From positions 10,942-74,941 of the forward strand of contig JAUWBJ010000001.1 in the NCBI GenBank assembly GCA_030605095.1: 64,000 nucleotides of DNA. The letters are read 5' to 3'. Positions 13,063-37,632 of this stretch are shown piece by piece. The DNA is from Candidatus Omnitrophota bacterium (lineage in GTDB: Bacteria; Omnitrophota; Gorgyraeia; JABMRN01; RBG-13-46-9). Within the stretch, counting starts at the first letter, position 1, and each line of letters starts with the position of its first letter. Both the position numbers and the translations under genes were made by a program. The notes below the pieces were generated by a model. That model ran no database searches. It was given only the letters and a program-made list of their open reading frames with translations, and had not been told where the DNA came from.

Positions 13063-13677
13063 ATGAAACTACCCAAGATTAGAGAACTTATAGAGGCGAT
13101 AAAAGCAGTGATAAAAGGGCCTTACACGTCTAAATTTCCTAAGGTGCCGCATGAACCACATCCGAATTTCAGGGGCAGGCCCAAGTTTAATCAGGAGAAA
13201 TGTGTAGGGTGCCTTGCGTGCGAAGAGGTTTGTCCGGTAGATGCTATTGCGCATAAAGATATAATCGATGACAAGGAAAAGCCGAAAAGGACAATGATTC
13301 ATTATTCAGATACGTGCATATTCTGCGGCCAATGTGAAGCAGCGTGCATTGCCGAACATGAAGGGATTAAACAATCTAACGAGTGGGAACTCTCGTTTTT
13401 TGATAGAAAACGAGAAGGCCAGGAAACGATTGATAAGGAACTGCAACTTTGCGAGATATGCGCCTCGCCGATTGCATGTAAAGACCACTTAAAATGGATT
13501 TCTGAAAAGATAGGTGAATTAACATATTCGAGCCCTACCTTATACCTATCCCGCCTTAAAAGCCTTGGTATTATAGATGAAAATATCATATCTGCAATGA
13601 AAGATAAGGGCCGCTCCGACAGGGTAAAAATTCTATGTGCCCGTTGCAGGAGAGAAACAACCCTAACCACTAAATAA
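13063..13677 (+). CDS. NuoI/MbhN-like 2x[4Fe-4S] ferredoxin subunit with Cys-rich C-terminal extension
   Basis: CVGCLACEEVCPVDAI and CIFCGQCEAACI motifs; extra CxxC...CxxC tail. Confidence 0.75.
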   Translation: MKLPKIRELIEAIKAVIKGPYTSKFPKVPHEPHPNFRGRPKFNQEKCVGCLACEEVCPVDAIAHKDIIDDKEKPKRTMIHYSDTCIFCGQCEAACIAEHEGIKQSNEWELSFFDRKREGQETIDKELQLCEICASPIACKDHLKWISEKIGELTYSSPTLYLSRLKSLGIIDENIISAMKDKGRSDRVKILCARCRRETTLTTK

Positions 13678-13682
13678 AACTA

Positions 13683-13841
13683 AAGGGGACGTTTCACTTT
13701 GCTATAATTATTTACAAACAAAGAAGTTGTAACATGCCATTTTCCAAAATCAAAAGGATAAAGGATATACTTAAAAGTGGAAAATGAGCGTTTATATCGT
13801 ATTGCAATATAAGGAGTTATGACAAAGTGAAACGTCCCCTT
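13683..13841 (+). promoter_or_regulatory. 19-bp perfect long-range inverted repeat bracketing the NuoI-like/hycI intergenic region
   Basis: AAGGGGACGTTTCACTTTG (13683-13701, 6 nt after the upstream stop) pairs with CAAAGTGAAACGTCCCCTT (13823-13841), which contains the hycI GTG start. Confidence 0.6.
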
Positions 13842-14294
13842 ATTTTCCAAGAGATATTGAGAGGTAGAGTTGTTATCGTCGGCATAGGTAATATAATAAA
13901 AGGTGATGATGGGTTTGGGCCGGCGCTCATTAAGAGATTGAATGGAAAAATAAAAGCGGTTTGCATCGATGCAGGCAGCGCGCCGGAGAACTACACGGGC
14001 GTTATTACAAAACAGAATCCAGATACGATATTGCTTGTTGATGCCGTACATTTGGATTTGCCAGGTGGCCGATACGAAATTTTAAAGCCAAAAGATATAT
14101 TAAAAAGCGGTTTTACCACCCATGATATTTCACCCAGGATGTTCATCGAATATCTTGAGAGCCAGACCAGGGCAAGAATTTTTCTACTGGGAGTCCAACC
14201 GCAAAATATCTCTTTAGGAGATGAGATGTCCGATAGCGTTAAAATGGCGCTTGCTGAGATAGAAAGCTTGATAAAGGAGACAATCAATGCATGA
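13827..14294 (+). CDS. hycI: hydrogenase maturation endopeptidase (HycI/HyaD family)
   Basis: GIGNIIKGDDGFG motif; GTG start with AAGGAG RBS 10 nt upstream. Confidence 0.85.
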   Translation: MKRPLIFQEILRGRVVIVGIGNIIKGDDGFGPALIKRLNGKIKAVCIDAGSAPENYTGVITKQNPDTILLVDAVHLDLPGGRYEILKPKDILKSGFTTHDISPRMFIEYLESQTRARIFLLGVQPQNISLGDEMSDSVKMALAEIESLIKETINA

Positions 14295-14529
14295 GACACA
14301 TCTAATACAACCGATAATAGAAGGCATATCCCAACACGCTAAAAAAGAAGGCGCAAAAGCCGTGTCAAAAGTAAGGCTTAAAATCGGTGAGTTTACAGGC
14401 GTTAAAGAGGATTCGTTCAAAGAGACTTTTTCTTCTCTGGCGAAGGGGACAATGCTTGAGGGTAGTGAACTTGAATTAACGTTTTTCCCGGGTTCCAGAG
14501 TCGAAGTTATATCCTTTGACATAAAATGA
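14287..14529 (+). CDS. hypA: HypA-like Ni-binding N-terminal domain protein (no Zn-finger region)
   Basis: Starts MHETHL (HypA MHE Ni-binding N-terminus) but is 80 aa with no cysteines. Confidence 0.6.
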   Translation: MHETHLIQPIIEGISQHAKKEGAKAVSKVRLKIGEFTGVKEDSFKETFSSLAKGTMLEGSELELTFFPGSRVEVISFDIK

Positions 14530-15572
14530 AAACAATTCTTGCAATAGGCGCTGATATAAAAAATAGATTTCTTCTCGCAAAGGGAAAGAATTTGCATTTT
14601 GGCCCTGATATAGGCGACTTAAGCGATGCTTCCAATTATGAACTTTTCAAGAAGGAAATACAGAGAGCCACAAAAAATATTAAGCCAGATATTGTTACAT
14701 GCGATTTACATCCCGGTTATTTTTCCACGAAATTCGTTAAAGAACATAGCCAAAAGCCCGTCCAGCATCACCACGCCCACATAGCCAGCGTGCTCGAGGA
14801 GCATAATTTAAAAAAACCTGTAATTGGGGTAGCTTTCGACGGCACAGGCCTTGGCACGGATGGGAATATATGGGGCGGCGAGTTTCTTATGGTTGAAAAA
14901 AAAGGATTTAAGCGCCTTGCCCATTTCAAATATATAAAGATGCCGGGCGGCGACAAGGTTGTCAGCGAGCCGTGGAGAATGGTTTTAAGCATACTGGGCG
15001 AGAGAGGGGCCCCTTTCATAAAAAGCGTTAAAAGAGAAGATAAGGAATTAATTCTTTCTATGTGCGCAAAAAATATAAATTCACCACTAACATCAAGCAC
15101 CGGCAGGTTATTCGATGCGGCAGCAGCACTTCTTGGCATATGTGAGCGTGCTTCGCGTGAAGCAGAAGGGCCTATAAAACTTGAGGCAATGTGTAAAGAT
15201 GGAGTAGGGGAAAGTTACGAATTTGGAATATCAAAAGATGATGGTCAATACATAATTGATATGGAACCTTTGTTTTTGAATATGGTTAAGGACTTAAAGA
15301 GAGGAAAAGATAAACGAGTTATCGCGACGAAATTCCATAATTCCATGGTTTTGATTATTCTCAAAACCGTTAAAAGGTTATCAAAGGATACGGGTATTAA
15401 GGATATCGCGCTCTCGGGGGGCGTATTTCAAAATAGATTCTTAAGGACAAAAGCGATAAAGACGTTATTATCTTCGAAATTTAATGTTTTTATTAATGAT
15501 AAAACACCTGTAAACGATTTTAATATATCGTTAGGACAATTCCATGTGTCTTGCTGTACCGGCAAAAATTAA
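14526..15572 (+). CDS. hypF: HypF-like carbamoyltransferase, Kae1/YgjD-like C-terminal domain only
   Basis: 348 aa matching the HypF C-terminal domain (GVAFDGTGLGTDGNIWGGEF, ALSGGVFQN); no acylphosphatase, Zn-finger or YrdC domains. Confidence 0.7.
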   Translation: MKTILAIGADIKNRFLLAKGKNLHFGPDIGDLSDASNYELFKKEIQRATKNIKPDIVTCDLHPGYFSTKFVKEHSQKPVQHHHAHIASVLEEHNLKKPVIGVAFDGTGLGTDGNIWGGEFLMVEKKGFKRLAHFKYIKMPGGDKVVSEPWRMVLSILGERGAPFIKSVKREDKELILSMCAKNINSPLTSSTGRLFDAAAALLGICERASREAEGPIKLEAMCKDGVGESYEFGISKDDGQYIIDMEPLFLNMVKDLKRGKDKRVIATKFHNSMVLIILKTVKRLSKDTGIKDIALSGGVFQNRFLRTKAIKTLLSSKFNVFINDKTPVNDFNISLGQFHVSCCTGKN

Positions 15573-34154: not shown

Positions 34155-35296
34155 AAAAATTTTTACGCGACAAGAAAGAAAAAGGCCTTTTGAGGATTTT
34201 ACGGCCTGCCCGTTTTAGAAAAGAAGGAAAAATCTATTTTAAAGACAGAAGCTTTATAGATTTTTCCTCCAACGATTATCTGGGATTATCAGGCCATCCT
34301 AAGATTAAAGAAGCCGCGGAAAAAACCATAACGACATTGGGGACAAGTTCTTCCGCGTCCAGGCTTTTAAGCGGAGATTTAAACATTCACCATAAGCTGG
34401 AGAAAAGAATAGCTTCTTTTAAAGAGAAAGAAGACGCTCTTCTATTCAATTCCGGATATCAGGCCAATGTAGGCATAATAAGTTCTCTCCTGGGAAAGAA
34501 TGACGCCATCTTTTCCGATAAACTAAATCACGCCAGTATTATAGACGGCATGCTTTTATCAGGAGCAAAGATTTTTCGATTTCGTCATAATGATATAGAA
34601 CATCTTGAATTTTTATTGAAAAGCCAAAGGAATAATTACAAAGAGGCCTTAATTGTTACAGAGACAGTCTTTAGCATGGAAGGGGACAAGCCGCCTCTCA
34701 AAGAGGTGGCTTCCTTGAAGGATAGATACTCCTCTATGTTATTGGTAGATGAAGCTCATGCTACGGGAATCTTCGGAGAAAAAGGAAAAGGCGTGGTAGA
34801 AGAGATGGGTCTGGCCGCGAGGATTGAACTAGTTATGGGCACATTCAGCAAGGCGCTGGGAAGCTTCGGCGCTTATGTAGCTTGTTCTTCCGAGCTAAAG
34901 AAGTATTTTGTAAATTCGGCAAGAAGTTTTATCTATTCTACGTCTCTACCACCATCTATAATCGGTGCCAATTTAGCCAGCTTAGATTTGATTGAAGAAG
35001 AACCTTTTCGGAGGCTCACGCTTCTCTGTAACAGTGATTATTTCCGTCAGGAACTGGGGAAAAAAGGATTTCGCACGAGAGGCACATCCCAAATTGTTCC
35101 TGTAATCTTCAAGGATAGCCAAAGGACGGTTAAAATAAGCCAGGATTTACAGAAAAAGGGATATTGGGTCCTTCCCATAAGGCCGCCTACGGTCCCGGAA
35201 GGAGAAGCAAGGTTAAGATTCTCGTTAACATATCATCACACGAAAGATATATTAGGAAAGCTTATCGATGATATCTCTCAAATCTGCCACGTTTAA
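34142..35296 (+). CDS. bioF: 8-amino-7-oxononanoate synthase
   Basis: PLP fold-type I, TFSKALGSFG lysine motif. Confidence 0.85.
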   Translation: MGRIEKFLRDKKEKGLLRILRPARFRKEGKIYFKDRSFIDFSSNDYLGLSGHPKIKEAAEKTITTLGTSSSASRLLSGDLNIHHKLEKRIASFKEKEDALLFNSGYQANVGIISSLLGKNDAIFSDKLNHASIIDGMLLSGAKIFRFRHNDIEHLEFLLKSQRNNYKEALIVTETVFSMEGDKPPLKEVASLKDRYSSMLLVDEAHATGIFGEKGKGVVEEMGLAARIELVMGTFSKALGSFGAYVACSSELKKYFVNSARSFIYSTSLPPSIIGANLASLDLIEEEPFRRLTLLCNSDYFRQELGKKGFRTRGTSQIVPVIFKDSQRTVKISQDLQKKGYWVLPIRPPTVPEGEARLRFSLTYHHTKDILGKLIDDISQICHV

Positions 35297-36833
35297 ATTT
35301 ATAGATAACGGTTATAAAGATTTAGCCGTATTGGTTCCCGGCTGGGCGACTGACTACAGAATCTTCGGCCCCCTGAATTTAGAATTCAATTATTTGGTGC
35401 CCCTTACCTTTTATCCTGACACATTCGAAGAAGACCTTTTAAAGACATTGAGAGAAAATAATATAGACAAACTCTCTTTGTTTGGCTGGTCATTGGGCGG
35501 ATTTTTGGCGGCAGAATTTGCTTCAAAGCATAAAGAGCTTATAGACAGGCTTATTTTGGTAAGCATAAGAAAAAAGTATGATAAAAAGAGGCTCACAGAG
35601 ATAAAGACGCATCTTGGCAAAAATAAAAGAGGTTATCTTTACAAATTTTATACCCAGTGTTTTTTTAAAAAAGAAAGCATGCGATGGTTTAGAAAAAATT
35701 TCCTTAAAACCTACTGCGAAGAACTGGATTTACATTATCTCGTGGATTCTTTAGGCTATTTACAAAATGCCGAGATACGACCGGAACTGCTGGAACCTAT
35801 AAAGAAGATAAAGATAATACACGGTGAATGCGATAGGATAGCACCTATTAAAGAGGCGCTTTGGATCAAAGAAAAACTGCCGCAAGCAGAGTTTATATCT
35901 ATTAAAAATACAGGGCATATACCGTTTCTGGAAGCTTGTGAACCGTTTGCGATTTCTATTTCAACCTGTCCCCGCAAGGGGGACAGGTTGAACGGGAAAT
36001 CGCAAACGGTTCAAAGCGATACACCGGGCGGAGGGGCCCACACAGAGAGGCACCCGCTGCCAGCTGCCAACGATAAAGAGATAATAAAGAGAAATTTTTC
36101 AAGATACGCAAAGTATTACGATAATTACTCTGACATTCAGGATGTCTCTGCCCTAAGGCTTATCAGCAAACTTGACTCGGATAATTTTAGCAGCATACTT
36201 GACCTCGGCTGCGGCACGGGAAATTATACGAGGCTCCTTAGAGAGAAATTCCCCCTTGCGAAAATAAAGGCCATAGACATATCCGGTGAAATGATTGAGA
36301 TAGCAAGAAAGAAACTACAGGGTAAACAAATAGAATTTGTTATAAAAGATGCGGAAGGAATAAATTCGAGAGATTCACTTGACCTTATAAGCTCTAATGT
36401 GAGCTTTCAGTGGTTTGTTAATTTAGAAAAAGCCCTATTAGATTACAAAAGATTGCTAAAGCCCGGCGGCACAATTCTCTTTTCCACATTCGGCCCCCTT
36501 ACATTTTATGAATTGAATAATGCCTTGCAAGAGCTATTAAAAGAGGAAAAAGAGATAAATTCCCGCCGGTTTTTGGAAAAAATAAGGATAACGAAGATTA
36601 TGGAGGCTCTTTTTAAAAAGGTTGAGGTAGGGGAGGAGACATTTAAAGAGAGCTATGTTTCATTGAGGGGACTTTTGGAAAAAATAAAATATAGCGGTAT
36701 AAGAGGGAGCGGCATAAAGACAGGAAATTTTTGGGTCTTCGGAAAAATGGATAAGCTGGAGAGGATATACAAAAAAAAATTTAACGAGATAGTAGCGACA
36801 TATCAGGTTTTTATTTGTAAGGGTATAAAGTGA
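35268..36833 (+). CDS. bioC: BioH-like esterase fused to BioC-like malonyl-ACP O-methyltransferase
   Basis: N-terminal alpha/beta hydrolase (GWSLGG, GHIPFLE), C-terminal SAM MTase (LDLGCGTGNYT). Confidence 0.7.
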   Translation: MISLKSATFKFIDNGYKDLAVLVPGWATDYRIFGPLNLEFNYLVPLTFYPDTFEEDLLKTLRENNIDKLSLFGWSLGGFLAAEFASKHKELIDRLILVSIRKKYDKKRLTEIKTHLGKNKRGYLYKFYTQCFFKKESMRWFRKNFLKTYCEELDLHYLVDSLGYLQNAEIRPELLEPIKKIKIIHGECDRIAPIKEALWIKEKLPQAEFISIKNTGHIPFLEACEPFAISISTCPRKGDRLNGKSQTVQSDTPGGGAHTERHPLPAANDKEIIKRNFSRYAKYYDNYSDIQDVSALRLISKLDSDNFSSILDLGCGTGNYTRLLREKFPLAKIKAIDISGEMIEIARKKLQGKQIEFVIKDAEGINSRDSLDLISSNVSFQWFVNLEKALLDYKRLLKPGGTILFSTFGPLTFYELNNALQELLKEEKEINSRRFLEKIRITKIMEALFKKVEVGEETFKESYVSLRGLLEKIKYSGIRGSGIKTGNFWVFGKMDKLERIYKKKFNEIVATYQVFICKGIK

Positions 36834-36941
36834 ACCCCGCCCTTCCTAAAAGAATTGAAGTAGATGCCATAATGAAAAACATGTATAGTTTGATGAAAAT
36901 GAAGATAAAGATAGAAATTAAAAGAAAAGGAAGGGCGGGGT
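36834..36941 (+). promoter_or_regulatory. 14-bp perfect long-range inverted repeat bracketing the bioH/C-bioD intergenic region
   Basis: ACCCCGCCCTTCCT (36834-36847, starting 1 nt after the stop) pairs with AGGAAGGGCGGGGT (36928-36941) overlapping the bioD GTG start. Confidence 0.6.
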
Positions 36942-37632
36942 GAAGGCAGTTTTTATTACCGGAACCGATACAGGCGTAGGGAAGACGATCGTCGCGGGTT
37001 TACTGGGGCGGTTTCTTTTAGATAATGGCCATCGGGCTATAACCCAGAAATGGATTCAAACGGGTAGCAAGTTTCCGGAAGACATAGCCCGGCATCTTGA
37101 ATTGATGAAGAAAAAAAAGTGCGATATAAACGATTATTTGCCTTACATGTCTCCCTATACTTTTAAGTTTCCCGCATCCGGGCACTTAGCAGCAAGATTG
37201 GAACGAAAGAAAATCAGCAGAGCTCGAATCAAAAAGAGTTTTCTCTTTTTAGAAGATAGGTTTGATTTTGTTATAGTAGAAGGAATAGGCGGCGCGTTAG
37301 TGCCTTTTAACGGGAAAGGTCTTGTGATAGACATAGCAAAGGAACTCGATATACCGGCATTACTCGTAGTAGCTAATAAATTAGGTTGTATAAACCATAC
37401 CTTACTTACAATAGAAGCCGTAAAAAGAAGGGGCATGAAGATTATCGGGATTATATTTAATAATAACCAATCCGGAGAAAGAGAGAATATTATTTCTAAA
37501 GATAATCCCCGGATAATAAAGAAACTGACGGGGGAGAGGATTCTCGGTGTTTTACCTTTCTCGAGAAGTAAAGAGTTACTATATAAGAGATTTATACCTA
37601 TAGGAAAAAAAGTAACATGGATAACTGGATAA
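36940..37632 (+). CDS. bioD: dethiobiotin synthetase
   Basis: FITGTDTGVGKT P-loop; GTG start. Confidence 0.85.
   Translation: MKAVFITGTDTGVGKTIVAGLLGRFLLDNGHRAITQKWIQTGSKFPEDIARHLELMKKKKCDINDYLPYMSPYTFKFPASGHLAARLERKKISRARIKKSFLFLEDRFDFVIVEGIGGALVPFNGKGLVIDIAKELDIPALLVVANKLGCINHTLLTIEAVKRRGMKIIGIIFNNNQSGERENIISKDNPRIIKKLTGERILGVLPFSRSKELLYKRFIPIGKKVTWITG

Follow-up and report, generated by a model that had tools for sequence, protein, structure and literature searches.

Bacterial MITEs and other small palindromic repeats, such as the Correia/NEMIS, ERIC, and RUP/BOX/SPRITE sequences, are short (about 100-200 bp), are bounded by inverted repeats, and are present in many copies. They lie in transcribed spacers, form long hairpins, and are present in one relative and absent from another. 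In REPINs, REP sequences are arranged as doublets that are mobilised by RAYT transposases, and the palindromic elements of Rickettsia (RPEs) are palindromic repeats that are tolerated inside reading frames. For the pneumococcal repeats, an effect on co-transcribed genes has been proposed, and these repeats can also create ORF adducts (PMC3049150). A different kind of insert is represented by the free-standing GIY-YIG seg genes of T4-like phages, which are small genes wedged between conserved co-directional genes; the expression of seg-type genes is tied to that of their neighbours by stop/start overlaps and by hairpins that sequester the ribosome-binding site (RBS) (PMC2988022). Finally, translational coupling based on the overlap of a stop codon with the next start codon is widespread (PMC6728339).

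Two inverted repeats in a 64,000-nt stretch of DNA (the window) can be compared with these systems. The host genome belongs to the Omnitrophota and is very compact and coded on a single strand. A count of perfect inverted repeats (14 bp or more, within 250 nt) gives three distinct centres in the window, every one of them at a gene junction; block shuffles (n = 60) gave a mean of 0.12 and a maximum of 1 by the same criterion. A first-pass annotation had singled out two of these repeats as long-range stems through which a ribosome terminating on one gene would free the start of the next, and had named MITE-like insertions, with terminal inverted repeats (TIRs) that captured a start codon, as a fallback. 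Both repeats exist as described and lie beyond chance as judged from shuffles, folds, and the expected number of arm matches, and it is the fallback idea that the evidence supports. Taken whole, the best explanation is that both stems are very probably the TIRs of small mobile-element insertions lodged between genes. The case for the mobility of these elements is made from comparative patterns and not from an observed transposition event.

Elements 1 and 2, as we call these insertions, are unrelated to each other, and each family has a single copy in the window. The layout that they have in common (stop codon, arm, loop, and a second arm with a GTG) arises because both inserted into very tight junctions; it is an insertion footprint in junctions that formerly overlapped or were a few nucleotides long. 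Neither instance is an assembly artefact, since both sequences recur in independent assemblies: a Logan contig matches the window at 100% identity over 2908 nt spanning element 1, and element 2 is present in ENA contig L038, where the bioC-bioD insert is the same as that of the window. The first junction has the following features.

13063..13677, + strand: upstream 4Fe-4S ferredoxin-like (NuoI-like) gene (ORF list; Pfam Fer4 families)
13683..13841, no strand: element 1, 159 bp long, a member of a MITE/REPIN-like family of dispersed palindromes in Omnitrophota with a typical length of about 147 bp
13683..13701, + strand: left TIR of element 1, AAGGGGACGTTTCACTTTG
13734..13830, + strand: chain of three mini-ORFs in element 1 (read from the sequence)
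13811..13816, + strand: SD-like AAGGAG of element 1, 10 nt upstream of the GTG and within the subfamily consensus TAAGGAGTTATGACAAAGTG
13823..13841, + strand: right TIR of element 1, the exact reverse complement of AAGGGGACGTTTCACTTTG, which holds the GTG at 13827-13829
13827..14294, + strand: hycI, hydrogenase maturation protease (PF01750; 758 homologues; N-terminal alignment)

The 4Fe-4S gene is part of a membrane hydrogenase operon and ends with TAA at 13675-13677. The perfect 19-bp repeat, the hycI GTG within its 3' arm, and the AAGGAG between the arms are all as first annotated. The 5' arm, which had been placed 6 nt after the stop, does lie close behind the TAA, with 5 nt in between; the loop of about 120 nt is itself an imperfect hairpin, in which the arms extend to 64 nt with 70% complementarity. 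Element 1 consists of two units of about 65 nt in inverted orientation, in the manner of a REPIN or MITE, and its halves are diverged copies of one unit, with conserved ends and a variable middle. When the two junctions were folded, as the first-pass annotation had recommended, both gave stable structures. For element 1 the fold has an energy of -55.3 kcal/mol (z = -6.8; none of 200 shuffles was as stable), most of the AAGGAG is base-paired in the MFE structure, and the hycI GTG pairs with 13695-13697 in the stem. The left arm lies outside any long reading frame, and the window holds no further match to the arm with up to 3 mismatches (chance expectation 0.01). (The three mini-ORFs, at 13734-13787, 13784-13822, and 13819-13830, are linked to one another, and the last of them to the hycI GTG, by RTGA stop/start overlaps; in this post hoc observation, chains of at least three were seen in 44 of 5000 shuffles of the element-1 interior.)

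Outside the window, the exact 19-mer arm is found at 31 genome loci, almost all of them in Omnitrophota-type MAGs, one MAG accounting for 9 contigs and a second for 8 loci. Roughly 20 complete copies (146-186 bp) align end to end; the similarity between them stops at the TIRs, and their flanks are unrelated. Besides the TIRs, these copies have in common the internal motifs GTTACAAC, TTTTCC..GGAAAA, and GTTGTAAC. They occupy short spacers between co-directional genes in both orientations (roughly 10:10), and the family has no general association with start codons. No direct repeat that could represent a target-site duplication (TSD) flanks any of 21 copies. A search of the single-arm loci for an autonomous partner found none, nor an adjacent transposase ORF; these loci proved to be truncated copies, GC-rich chance matches (L019 and L027), and an unrelated Lachnospiraceae hairpin (L018). 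The idea that the structure of element 1 is maintained by selection was also dropped: among 19 copies RNAalifold gave only invariant pairs and zero compensatory pairs, and the halves of a copy pair with each other no better than with the halves of other copies, which indicates that the halves have not co-evolved.

Element 1 thus resembles a REPIN in several respects: two inverted copies of a unit of about 65 nt, highly conserved ends around a variable middle, an extragenic location, numerous copies in each genome, and the lack of a target duplication. Its units are longer than typical REPs, and to our knowledge its sequence is unrelated to that of described REPs. It differs from bacterial MITEs in having no detectable target duplication and no known parent.

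A comparison of orthologous junctions, which the first-pass annotation had also suggested, shows that close relatives lack the inserts both at fdx-hycI and at bioC-bioD. At fdx-hycI the spacer without element 1 is 5 nt in L003 (TAAcaaaaTTG) and 26 nt in L004. In CP070780.1 (L002/L009) only the 3' half of element 1 is kept, with GTGAAACGTCCCCTT retained, so that no stem is possible there. Locus L010 has the whole of element 1 at this junction and an intact ATG (MRNIF) 16 nt downstream. HycI homologues begin M-x-N-I-F (M-Q/R-N-I-F in relatives), and VKRPL is found only in the window and in P0004; the right TIR encodes these first five HycI residues, V-K-R-P-L. Downstream of the in-frame stop at 13785-13787, and ahead of the almost invariant HycI residues I10 and K14, the GTG at 13827 is the sole canonical start. 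From these alignments, the GTG in the right TIR appears to have replaced the native hycI start and to have added K-R-P-L to HycI; the native start would have been lost through a deletion of about 25 nt, as judged against L010. (A TIR-borne GTG was also considered as a general start in the element-1 family; it is unused in L010, L012, L020, and L029, where the real starts lie downstream.)

The bioC-bioD junction holds an insert of a different kind.

35268..36833, + strand: bioH-like hydrolase and bioC methyltransferase in a fused 521-aa ORF, with stop TGA at 36831-36833
36830..36943, + strand: relic 'relay' mini-ORF, VNPALPKRIEVDAIMKNMYSLMKMKIKIEIKRKGRAG followed by a stop (37 codons plus stop)
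36831..36834, + strand: left TSD copy TGAA, which supplies the bioC stop; a single RTGA is present at empty sites in relatives
36835..36940, no strand: element 2, probably a decayed, non-autonomous derivative of a GIY-YIG cassette
36835..36847, + strand: left TIR of element 2, CCCCGCCCTTCCT, complementary to the new SD/start region and forming mini-ORF codons 2-6
36848..36927, + strand: degenerate interior of element 2, in which homology to the GIY-YIG gene is detectable only over the outer 20 nt or so on either side
36928..36940, + strand: right TIR of element 2, AGGAAGGGCGGGG, with SD-like AGGAAGG (36928-36934) and the G of the new GTG
36940..37632, + strand: bioD, dethiobiotin synthase (N-terminus alignment)
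36941..36944, + strand: right TSD copy TGAA, which forms the last two bases of the bioD GTG and opens codon 2

Here too the repeat stands as first described: its perfect 14-bp arms, ACCCCGCCCTTCCT (36834-36847) and AGGAAGGGCGGGGT (36928-36941), enclose an 80-nt loop, the 5' arm directly adjoins the bioC TGA (36831-36833), and the 3' arm takes in the first two bases of the bioD GTG (36940-36942). The fold has an energy of -34.5 kcal/mol (z = -5.4). An SD-like AGGAAGG, missed in the first-pass annotation, also lies within the 3' arm. In L036/L037, L039/L040, and L041 the insert is absent and bioC and bioD overlap by 4 nt (AAATGAGC); BioD of the window (MKAVFITGTD) aligns residue for residue with the MSAVFITGTD of insert-free relatives. 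The relic mini-ORF begins with a GTG that overlaps the bioC stop (GTGA) and ends with a TGA that overlaps the bioD start (GTGA), and its termini match those of full-length GIY-YIG proteins, MNPALP...KGRAG followed by the stop. The GIY-YIG domain itself (PF01541) is not encoded by the element-2 copy of the window.

A metagenome scan recovered about 37 short copies of the form RTGRR, CCCCGCCCTTCCT, interior, AGGAAGGGCGGGG, TGRR; since the pattern demanded perfect 11-mers and loops of 60-90 nt, some of the arm conservation in this set comes from the selection itself. In 44 of 46 copies the TGRR on the left matches the one on the right (TGAG/TGAG and TGGA/TGGA are among these pairs), and where copies stand in tandem a single TGRR serves both. 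An ORF of 100 codons or more begins at the right RTG in 40 of the 46, the other two frames having one in none. Downstream lie housekeeping genes of diverse kinds, whose Pfam domains start at residues 1-7, and the left flanks have a purine-rich SD at the usual distance. Throughout the family, the 3' arm carries an SD and a GTG and the 5' arm forms codons 2-6 of an ORF opened by the native start that was displaced; this ORF usually ends in a TGA that overlaps the new GTG. These patterns indicate that the family sits exactly at start codons, between the first base (R) and TGRR, flanked by a 4-bp duplication. The left duplicate keeps the old SD and start (in the window also the bioC TGA stop), and the right TIR gives the SD AGGAAGG and a terminal G that makes a new GTG with the right duplicate. 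Part of the apparent targeting of start codons could be survivorship, with only harmless insertions persisting.

The parent cassette is about 300 bp long and contains a single gene, which encodes a 96-aa UPF0213/SLX1-like GIY-YIG nuclease; the 13-bp TIRs lie within the coding termini of this gene (NPALP and GRAG). A protein search with two concatenated mini-ORF peptides as probe yielded 114 clusters of GIY-YIG proteins of about 96 aa, 82 of them with both MxPALP and GRAG termini. The N-terminal L/P co-varies with the C-terminal R/G (77 L/R, 3 P/G, and 0 mixed), as the complementarity of the arms predicts. Full-length cassettes, with the same termini as element 2, are found at argD/argF, metF/cooC-like, pilM/pilN, and OEP/MFP junctions and overlap both neighbouring genes by 4 nt; 15 or more unrelated genes flank members of the GIY-YIG family. 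Parts of the nuclease, N- or C-terminal, are still encoded by some of the short copies. A 121-nt derivative is common to L044 and L059 (91% identity, with the same deletion junction and unrelated flanks), and the homology of these two ends exactly at the element termini. Other interiors align neither between loci nor to the full-length gene beyond the ends, so that a single amplified MITE lineage is claimed only for L044/L059; the remaining short copies could be products of decay in situ and not MITEs mobilised in trans. (L044 and L118, both at OEP/MFP, were compared as a decayed copy and its full-length orthologue; their flanking OEPs are only about 24% identical.)

Element 2 thus has the TIRs, the TSD, the presence at unrelated loci, and the termini in common with a protein-coding element that characterise MITEs. 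It departs from bacterial MITEs in that the only gene of its parent encodes a GIY-YIG nuclease and not a DDE or other known transposase, and in that it lies almost exclusively at start codons, where its end rebuilds an SD and a start. The parent cassette gave no match to a known transposase family, the GIY-YIG nuclease (PF01541) being its sole gene, and GIY-YIG nucleases are not known to act as transposases; the nuclease is presumably the driver of the family's mobility. No full-length GIY-YIG gene is found in the window or in any of the fetched Omnitrophota loci. The closest solved relatives of the nuclease are proteins of the UPF0213/SLX1 type (PDB 1zg2 and 1ywl; SLX1, 7cq2). Most UPF0213 relatives align from their residue 2 to query residue 10, that is, they lack the TIR-derived MNPALPK head and KGRAG tail.

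On balance, element 2 may well be a relic of a previously undescribed class of mobile element, a nuclease cassette that inserts at R/TGRR and relays operon translation. Such a cassette would, with about the same confidence, be expressed from the SD and start of the host gene and return to that gene an SD and a GTG that overlaps its own stop. Within the literature searchable here, we came across no report of a GIY-YIG element that combines TIRs, a target duplication, and insertion at start codons. The cassette unites features that are normally separate: a gene of the homing-endonuclease type, transposon-type ends with a TSD, and insertion at a translation start. If true, this reading would give one branch of UPF0213 its first biological role and would explain the short hairpins with SD-like arms that precede housekeeping genes in Omnitrophota and other uncultivated bacteria. 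It also offers testable hypotheses on UPF0213 function and on how translational coupling tolerates insertions.

Relayed translational coupling from bioC to bioD, as a property of the element, is plausible because the 37-codon ORF overlaps the bioC stop at one end and the bioD start at the other, each time as GTGA. The ancestral bioC/bioD overlap is ATGA, and the insert keeps two overlaps in series and adds a stem that covers the SD and the start. In silico folds show the start regions sequestered by both stems, the SD of bioD included. Ribosomes that end bioC, or that start at the old bioD RBS, would translate the ORF of the element (the nuclease gene in full-length copies, the 37-codon relic in the window); this would unzip the 5' arm from the new SD/GTG, and termination at the TGA overlapping the bioD GTG would then relay the original stop/start coupling across the insert. 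The relay ORF is intact at 8 of 9 independent loci where the upstream gene ends at the left TGA, compared with 4 of 15 elsewhere (Fisher p = 0.009; about 24 hand-dereplicated loci); about half of all element-2 copies are frame-broken in the mini-ORF. In contrast to the usual coupling by overlap, the relay, if it operates, runs through the ORF of a mobile element and is not conserved at orthologous junctions. The replacement RBS and the stop/start overlaps look like a design that minimises harm, suited to life in the essential operons of streamlined genomes.

An unlikely alternative accepts the mobile origin and places the main effect of the elements on RNA, as for REP, ERIC, or Correia sequences, and not on a translational relay; they would act through mRNA stabilisation, an RNase III site, or a partial attenuation of transcription by which hycI or bioD would be uncoupled in level from the genes upstream. 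The hairpins are long and very stable (-55 kcal/mol, predicted), the elements lie inside operons and should therefore be co-transcribed, and small interspersed repeats elsewhere are thought to act on co-transcribed genes through structure (PMC3049150). However, a terminator consensus scan around both elements found no GC-rich hairpin with a T-run, a promoter consensus scan of the same regions gave matches at chance level only, and an Rfam scan of the whole window at the gathering threshold gave zero matches. The phased, open mini-ORF is moreover kept specifically where the upstream gene abuts, which points to translation.

It is rather doubtful, too, that the GIY-YIG cassette is a free-standing homing endonuclease gene spread by break repair and not a transposon with TIRs and a TSD. 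The complementary termini would then be a regulatory RNA stem and the flanking TGRR a recognition site and not a duplication, a view of the ends that we hold to be just as doubtful. The GIY-YIG enzymes include classic homing endonucleases, of which the free-standing kind lies between conserved genes in T4-like phages; the nuclease has a weak match to the group I intron endonuclease model TIGR01453 and no known transposase domain. RBS-sequestering hairpins and stop/start overlaps do regulate such phage genes (PMC2988022). Homing, however, needs homologous flanks, whereas this family precedes so many unrelated genes; the two TGRR sides co-vary as a duplication would, and tandem copies have one TGRR in common. 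The 121-nt derivative is non-coding, yet it is found at two unrelated loci with homology ending at the termini. The likeness to seg genes, a small gene wedged between conserved co-directional genes, also has its limits. The cassette is chromosomal and belongs to uncultivated bacteria, its nuclease has no match in phage and plasmid collections, and its protein is only about 96 aa long and lacks a separate DNA-binding domain; it has TIRs, a 4-bp duplication, and many unrelated sites, and it starts on the start codon of the host gene.

That the stems evolved in the host as long-range devices coupling downstream translation to upstream termination, the main hypothesis of the first-pass annotation, is very improbable. 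The stems are stable and sequester the GTG (and the SD for bioD), the 5' arms begin 0-5 nt past the upstream stop, both gene pairs belong to operons in which coupling is expected, and the bioC/bioD overlap of relatives is ATGA. Against this, the same arms recur at dozens of loci that are otherwise unrelated, no stem is present at either junction in close relatives (CP070780.1 having only the 3' arm at hycI), element 1 is inserted in both orientations, and no covariation maintains its hairpin. A ribosome stopped at a stop codon should unwind only about 5-7 nt beyond it, given the position of the ribosomal helicase. At the TAA at 13675 it would thus open no more than 0-2 bp at the outer end of the 19-bp stem, and melting coupled to the stop fails at hycI. 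The scatter of homologues of both elements over unrelated loci is the very finding that the first-pass annotation had named as telling against its proposal, and with the stem-free orthologous junctions it leaves a recurring host mechanism of coupling at a distance unsupported as stated. At bioD something similar to that coupling is plausible, although built into a mobile element and not evolved by the host. Stems at gene junctions that look regulatory need to be examined for membership in a repeat family before they are interpreted.

That the 37-codon ORF at 36830-36943 is a functional small protein of the biotin operon can be set aside as extremely improbable: it is open, with a plausible SD (AAGGG) 6 nt upstream and operon-style overlaps on both sides, but only its termini are conserved, its interiors are unalignable and variable in length, the frame is broken in about half of the copies, Pfam gives no match, and relatives with intact biotin operons lack it.

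With both stems read as the ends of mobile elements, the third perfect inverted repeat of the window belongs to a further palindrome.

35939..36013, no strand: element 3, a 75-bp nested perfect palindrome with 18-bp and 14-bp arms

In relatives bioH and bioC are separate genes (229 and 255 aa) with a 4-nt overlap. Element 3 lies at the former junction of the bioH stop and the bioC start and is followed by 62 nt of extra GC-rich sequence (36014-36075); the reading frame continues through the insert, which forms a linker and fuses bioH with bioC. Small palindromic insertions are rewriting start codons, N-termini, and even gene fusions in these genomes, as seen in the VKRPL head of HycI and in the BioH-BioC fusion. 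In this they resemble the RPEs, element 3 being read in frame and element 1 donating five codons to hycI, but the sequences and the phylum are unrelated, and the elements described here lie at gene boundaries and not inside genes. The element-3 arm is also found elsewhere: a full copy lies just upstream of the tgt start in L014, and a solo arm is present in the fdx-hycI spacer of L004.

The two inverted repeats reported by the first-pass annotation, at the starts of hycI and bioD, are real: their arms can be read directly from the window, and identical sequences of both are present in independent assemblies. The features concerned are as follows.

13063-13677, + strand: upstream 4Fe-4S gene (fdx)
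13683-13701 and 13823-13841: arms of the hycI repeat (element 1), 19 bp, perfect
36834-36847 and 36928-36941: arms of the bioD repeat (element 2), 14 bp, perfect, with a loop of 80 nt

At hycI, the 5' arm lies just past the upstream stop, with a gap of 5 nt; as described, the hycI GTG (13827) falls inside the 3' arm, and AAGGAG (13811-13816) lies between the arms. The DNA that had been taken for a 120-nt loop is present, but it is itself an imperfect hairpin that lengthens each arm to 64 nt, with 70% complementarity. At bioD, the 5' arm directly abuts the TGA of the upstream ORF, and the 3' arm overlaps the start by holding the GT of the GTG; an SD-like (Shine-Dalgarno-like) AGGAAGG also lies within this arm. 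RNA folding gives -55.3 kcal/mol (z = -6.8) for the hycI repeat and -34.5 kcal/mol (z = -5.4) for the bioD repeat. The window has 3 centres of perfect inverted repeats with arms of 14 bp or more inside 250 nt, against 0.12 expected, and the third (35939-36013) is likewise at a gene junction. Rfam has no match anywhere in the 64-kb window.

The source names of the HycI and BioD homologues point to an Omnitrophota bacterium as the origin of the window. Its long ORFs are all on the + strand, and most neighbours overlap or lie a few bases apart. (The exceptions are the palindrome-hit junctions and a handful of spacers of 74-255 nt.) Before the hycI repeat comes the final subunit gene of a group-4-type membrane hydrogenase/Mrp module, after it hycI-hypA-hypF'-hypC-hypD; the bioD repeat lies in a bioF-bioH-bioC-bioD-bioA operon. 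(The HypF-like ORF, 14526-15572, is just 348 aa, and a relative's counterpart matches HypF C-terminal/TsaD-like domains only; this hyp cluster seems to lack the N-terminal portion of canonical HypF, with its acylphosphatase and zinc fingers.) Two readings of the stems had been offered, a recurring host mechanism of translational coupling at a distance and MITE-like insertion. Among orthologous junctions, no insert is present at fdx-hycI of locus L003 or at bioC/bioD of the relatives' loci L036/L037, L039/L040, and L041. The host mechanism is not supported; the insertion reading is, and it widens to an unexpectedly interesting element family with a GIY-YIG parent.

In L036/L037 (BioD 87% identical), L039/L040, and L041, bioC and bioD overlap by 4 nt (…AAATGAGC…), while L038 (BioD 85%) carries the same 106-nt insert as the window. 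Removal of element 2 and one TGAA from the window leaves ATAAAGTGAAGGCAGTTT, which matches the empty L036 site, GTAAAATGAGCGCAGTTT. A metagenome scan with the pattern CCGCCCTTCCT-N60-90-AGGAAGGGCGG returned 62 loci in two groups, one of which comprises about 37 element 2-like copies of the form RTGRR|CCCCGCCCTTCCT…AGGAAGGGCGGGG|TGRR. Left and right TGRR agree in 44 of 46 family copies, including TGAG/TGAG and TGGA/TGGA pairs, as a 4-bp target duplication predicts. An ORF of 100 codons or more begins at the right-end RTG in 40/46 copies, the other two frames never having one, and the genes downstream (LeuD-like, Rpe, PgsA-like, HisD, YbeY, AccB, Tsf, Pta, PyrC-like, LipA-like) have Pfam domains that begin at residues 1-7; the insert therefore lies exactly at the true start codon. 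By a rough estimate, this strictness appears to exceed what survivorship would lead one to expect. Because a purine-rich SD precedes the left RTG at the usual distance, the left RTG is the displaced native start; and because a G precedes the right TG in 41/46 copies but an A the left TG in 36/46, the G is the element's own and the start goes from ATG to GTG. Tandem arrays of short element 2 units (44-56 nt each) in which neighbouring units share one TGRR (L042 3320-3430, L099 3290-3400, L083 700-925, L098 4500-4600) are as expected if the regenerated SD-GTGAA of a resident copy is itself the target. (In L099, the array continues in the reading frame of the lipA-like gene that follows it.)

The other group, from GC-rich soil samples, was rejected as unrelated; its extended termini differ (GGGGCAAG…). 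It constitutes a second MITE-like family, with longer termini GGGGCAAGCCGCCCTTCCTGAC...GTCAGGAAGGGCGGCTTGCCCC, and shares only the 11-mer CCGCCCTTCCT (L043, L045, L047, L057, L062, L067, L070, L072, L075, L076, L080, L084-L088, L091, L093-L095, L100, L102).

Translation of element 2 copies from the left RTG gives M-(N/S/D)-P-A-L-P…K-G-R-A-G-stop, the TGA overlapping the right GTG in 20/37 copies, and some interiors (L044, L059, L082) are recognisable as pieces of a GIY-YIG protein. A protein search with two such element-encoded peptides found 114 clusters of GIY-YIG proteins (PF01541) of about 96 aa, several of them labelled as Omnitrophota; 82 combine an MxPALP head with a GRAG tail. The closest solved relatives are UPF0213 proteins and SLX1. 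In an exhaustive search, residue 2 of most relatives aligns to query residue 10; head and tail are therefore clade-specific add-ons. Full-length genes, found at argD|argF, metF|cooC-like, pilM|pilN, and OEP|MFP junctions, overlap each neighbour by 4 nt, and their nucleotide termini are those of the short copies. In the protein clusters, NPA-L is combined with R-AG in 77 cases and NPA-P with G-AG in 3, and mixed combinations are absent; judged from the proteins, complementary change at arm position 9 would give such a pattern. (Variant GIY-YIG proteins P0359, P0362, P0364, and P0383, whose heads are MNPAP.. or MSPALTSH, sometimes tandem-duplicated, and whose tails are ..GGAG or ..VSAG, suggest that there are sister subfamilies whose termini differ yet remain complementary.) L044 and L059 contain a common 121-nt derivative, 91% identical and with the same internal deletion junction, in flanks that are unrelated at both the DNA and protein levels; at least one non-coding derivative has therefore moved. 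Element 2 of the window, in which only about 20 nt of homology are left at each end, is best read as a remnant of this GIY-YIG cassette inserted at start codons; no full-length GIY-YIG gene was found within the 64-kb window. The nuclease may drive mobility. Element 2 behaves like a MITE, and its parent is similar to the free-standing GIY-YIG homing endonuclease genes (PMC2988022), from which it is set apart by terminal inverted repeats (TIRs), target duplication, many unrelated targets, and start-codon precision. No comparable element was found in the literature of the searchable library, and nothing similar in phage and plasmid collections.

A 37-codon ORF (36830-36943) now follows the old bioD SD (AAGGG) and opens with the old start; its codons 2-6 are the 5' arm and its TGA overlaps the new bioD GTG, the 3' arm being an SD plus G. 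Ribosomes that end bioC at the GTGA overlap, or that initiate at the old RBS, would translate across the 5' arm and so free the new SD/GTG; brought to the second GTGA, they would reinitiate, relaying the ancestral bioC-bioD coupling. (Coupling via stop/start overlaps is general in prokaryotes [PMC6728339].) In support of the relay, the mini-ORF is intact and correctly phased at 8/9 independent loci where the upstream gene ends at the left TGA versus 4/15 elsewhere (Fisher p = 0.009; loci dereplicated by hand). Of the 14-bp stem, a ribosome that merely terminates would melt no more than the outer 5-7 bp; since the remaining 7 bp over an 80-nt loop should be weak, the simpler idea of the first-pass annotation, termination melting without a relay, is also physically possible at bioD.

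Element 1 is a dispersed palindromic repeat. In the GTDB genome collection its exact 19-mer arm turns up in 31 stretches. Almost all of these belong to Omnitrophota-type MAGs; one MAG accounts for 9 contigs and another for 8 loci. (L019 and L027 were discarded, being GC-rich and apparently chance matches; a 74-bp hairpin with the 19-mer, AAGGGGACGTTTCACTTTG ... GAATGAAACGTCCCCCTT, in a Lachnospiraceae MAG of an unrelated phylum [L018 1751-1824] was likewise set aside and may be either a coincidence or a remote relative.) Some 20 full copies, 146-186 bp long, have both arms and the common internal motifs GTTACAAC, TTTTCC, GGAAAA, and GTTGTAAC; beyond the TIRs they are not alike, and their flanks show no target duplication. 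Copies lie in short spacers of co-directional genes, typically 0-25 nt from both neighbours, in both orientations in about equal numbers. Compensatory change maintaining the hairpin was not found among the copies, and a copy's own right half is no better a partner for its left half than the right half of another copy. The palindrome therefore descends as a doublet of a single unit in inverted orientation, like REPINs, rather than being maintained by selection on its structure. Element 1 adds a member to a known kind, the MITE/REPIN-like interspersed repeats (cf. PMC3049150).

At the fdx-hycI junction, L003 (HycI 84% identical) reads TAA-caaaa-TTG, and in L004 (88%) the 26-nt spacer (1069-1094) is filled by a solo arm of the third element family. 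In CP070780.1, a complete Omnitrophota genome (L002/L009; HycI 83%), the 3' half of element 1 alone remains, so that no long stem is possible, and GTTATGACAAAGTGAAACGTCCCCTT is kept exactly despite this loss. L010 (69%) has a full copy of the same subfamily at the same place, with the left junction AACTAAA in common and the hycI ATG (MRNIF) 16 nt downstream of the TIR. HycI homologues start M-x-N-I-F, with V/M-K-R-P-L only in the window and CP070780.1 proteins, and GTG 13827 is the sole canonical start that follows the in-frame stop at 13785 and precedes the nearly invariant I10/K14. It is concluded that the right TIR has captured the hycI start, most likely because some 25 nt were deleted from the native start region; other members of the family do not start at the TIR-borne GTG. 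Going by the position of the ribosomal helicase, a terminating ribosome should unwind only about 5-7 nt past the stop; given this reach, a ribosome at 13675-13677 meets 0-2 bp of the stem, and termination-induced melting cannot free GTG 13827. Three mini-ORFs within element 1 (13734-13830) are chained to one another and to the hycI GTG by ATGA/ATGA/GTGA overlaps, a post hoc finding that arises in 44/5000 shuffles of the interior (0.9%). (The L010 copy has a chain of two.)

The third element, a nested perfect palindrome of 75 bp (35939-36013), sits where the bioH stop and the bioC start once overlapped; in L036 and L038 that overlap is uninterrupted (ATATGAAC). Together with 62 nt of GC-rich sequence (to 36075) it is read in frame, and with the bioC ATG gone the outcome is a 521-aa BioH-BioC fusion ORF (35268-36833); in relatives, the two are separate (229 and 255 aa) with a 4-nt overlap. 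The same palindrome (arm TGAACCGTTTGCGATTTC) occurs in CP070780.1 (L014 2488-2575) just upstream of a tgt-like start, with ATGAAC on both sides, and this family too seems to land at RTGAA start codons. In these genomes, more than one palindromic family thus appears to have such gene starts as its landing site. CP070780.1 has a different, 318-nt insert at its bioH|bioC junction (L041 1919-2236), which is bounded by the inverted repeat CCTGTGAGGCCA / TGGCCTCACAGG, contains further internal palindromes, and has the bioH stop within a GTGA of its left repeat.
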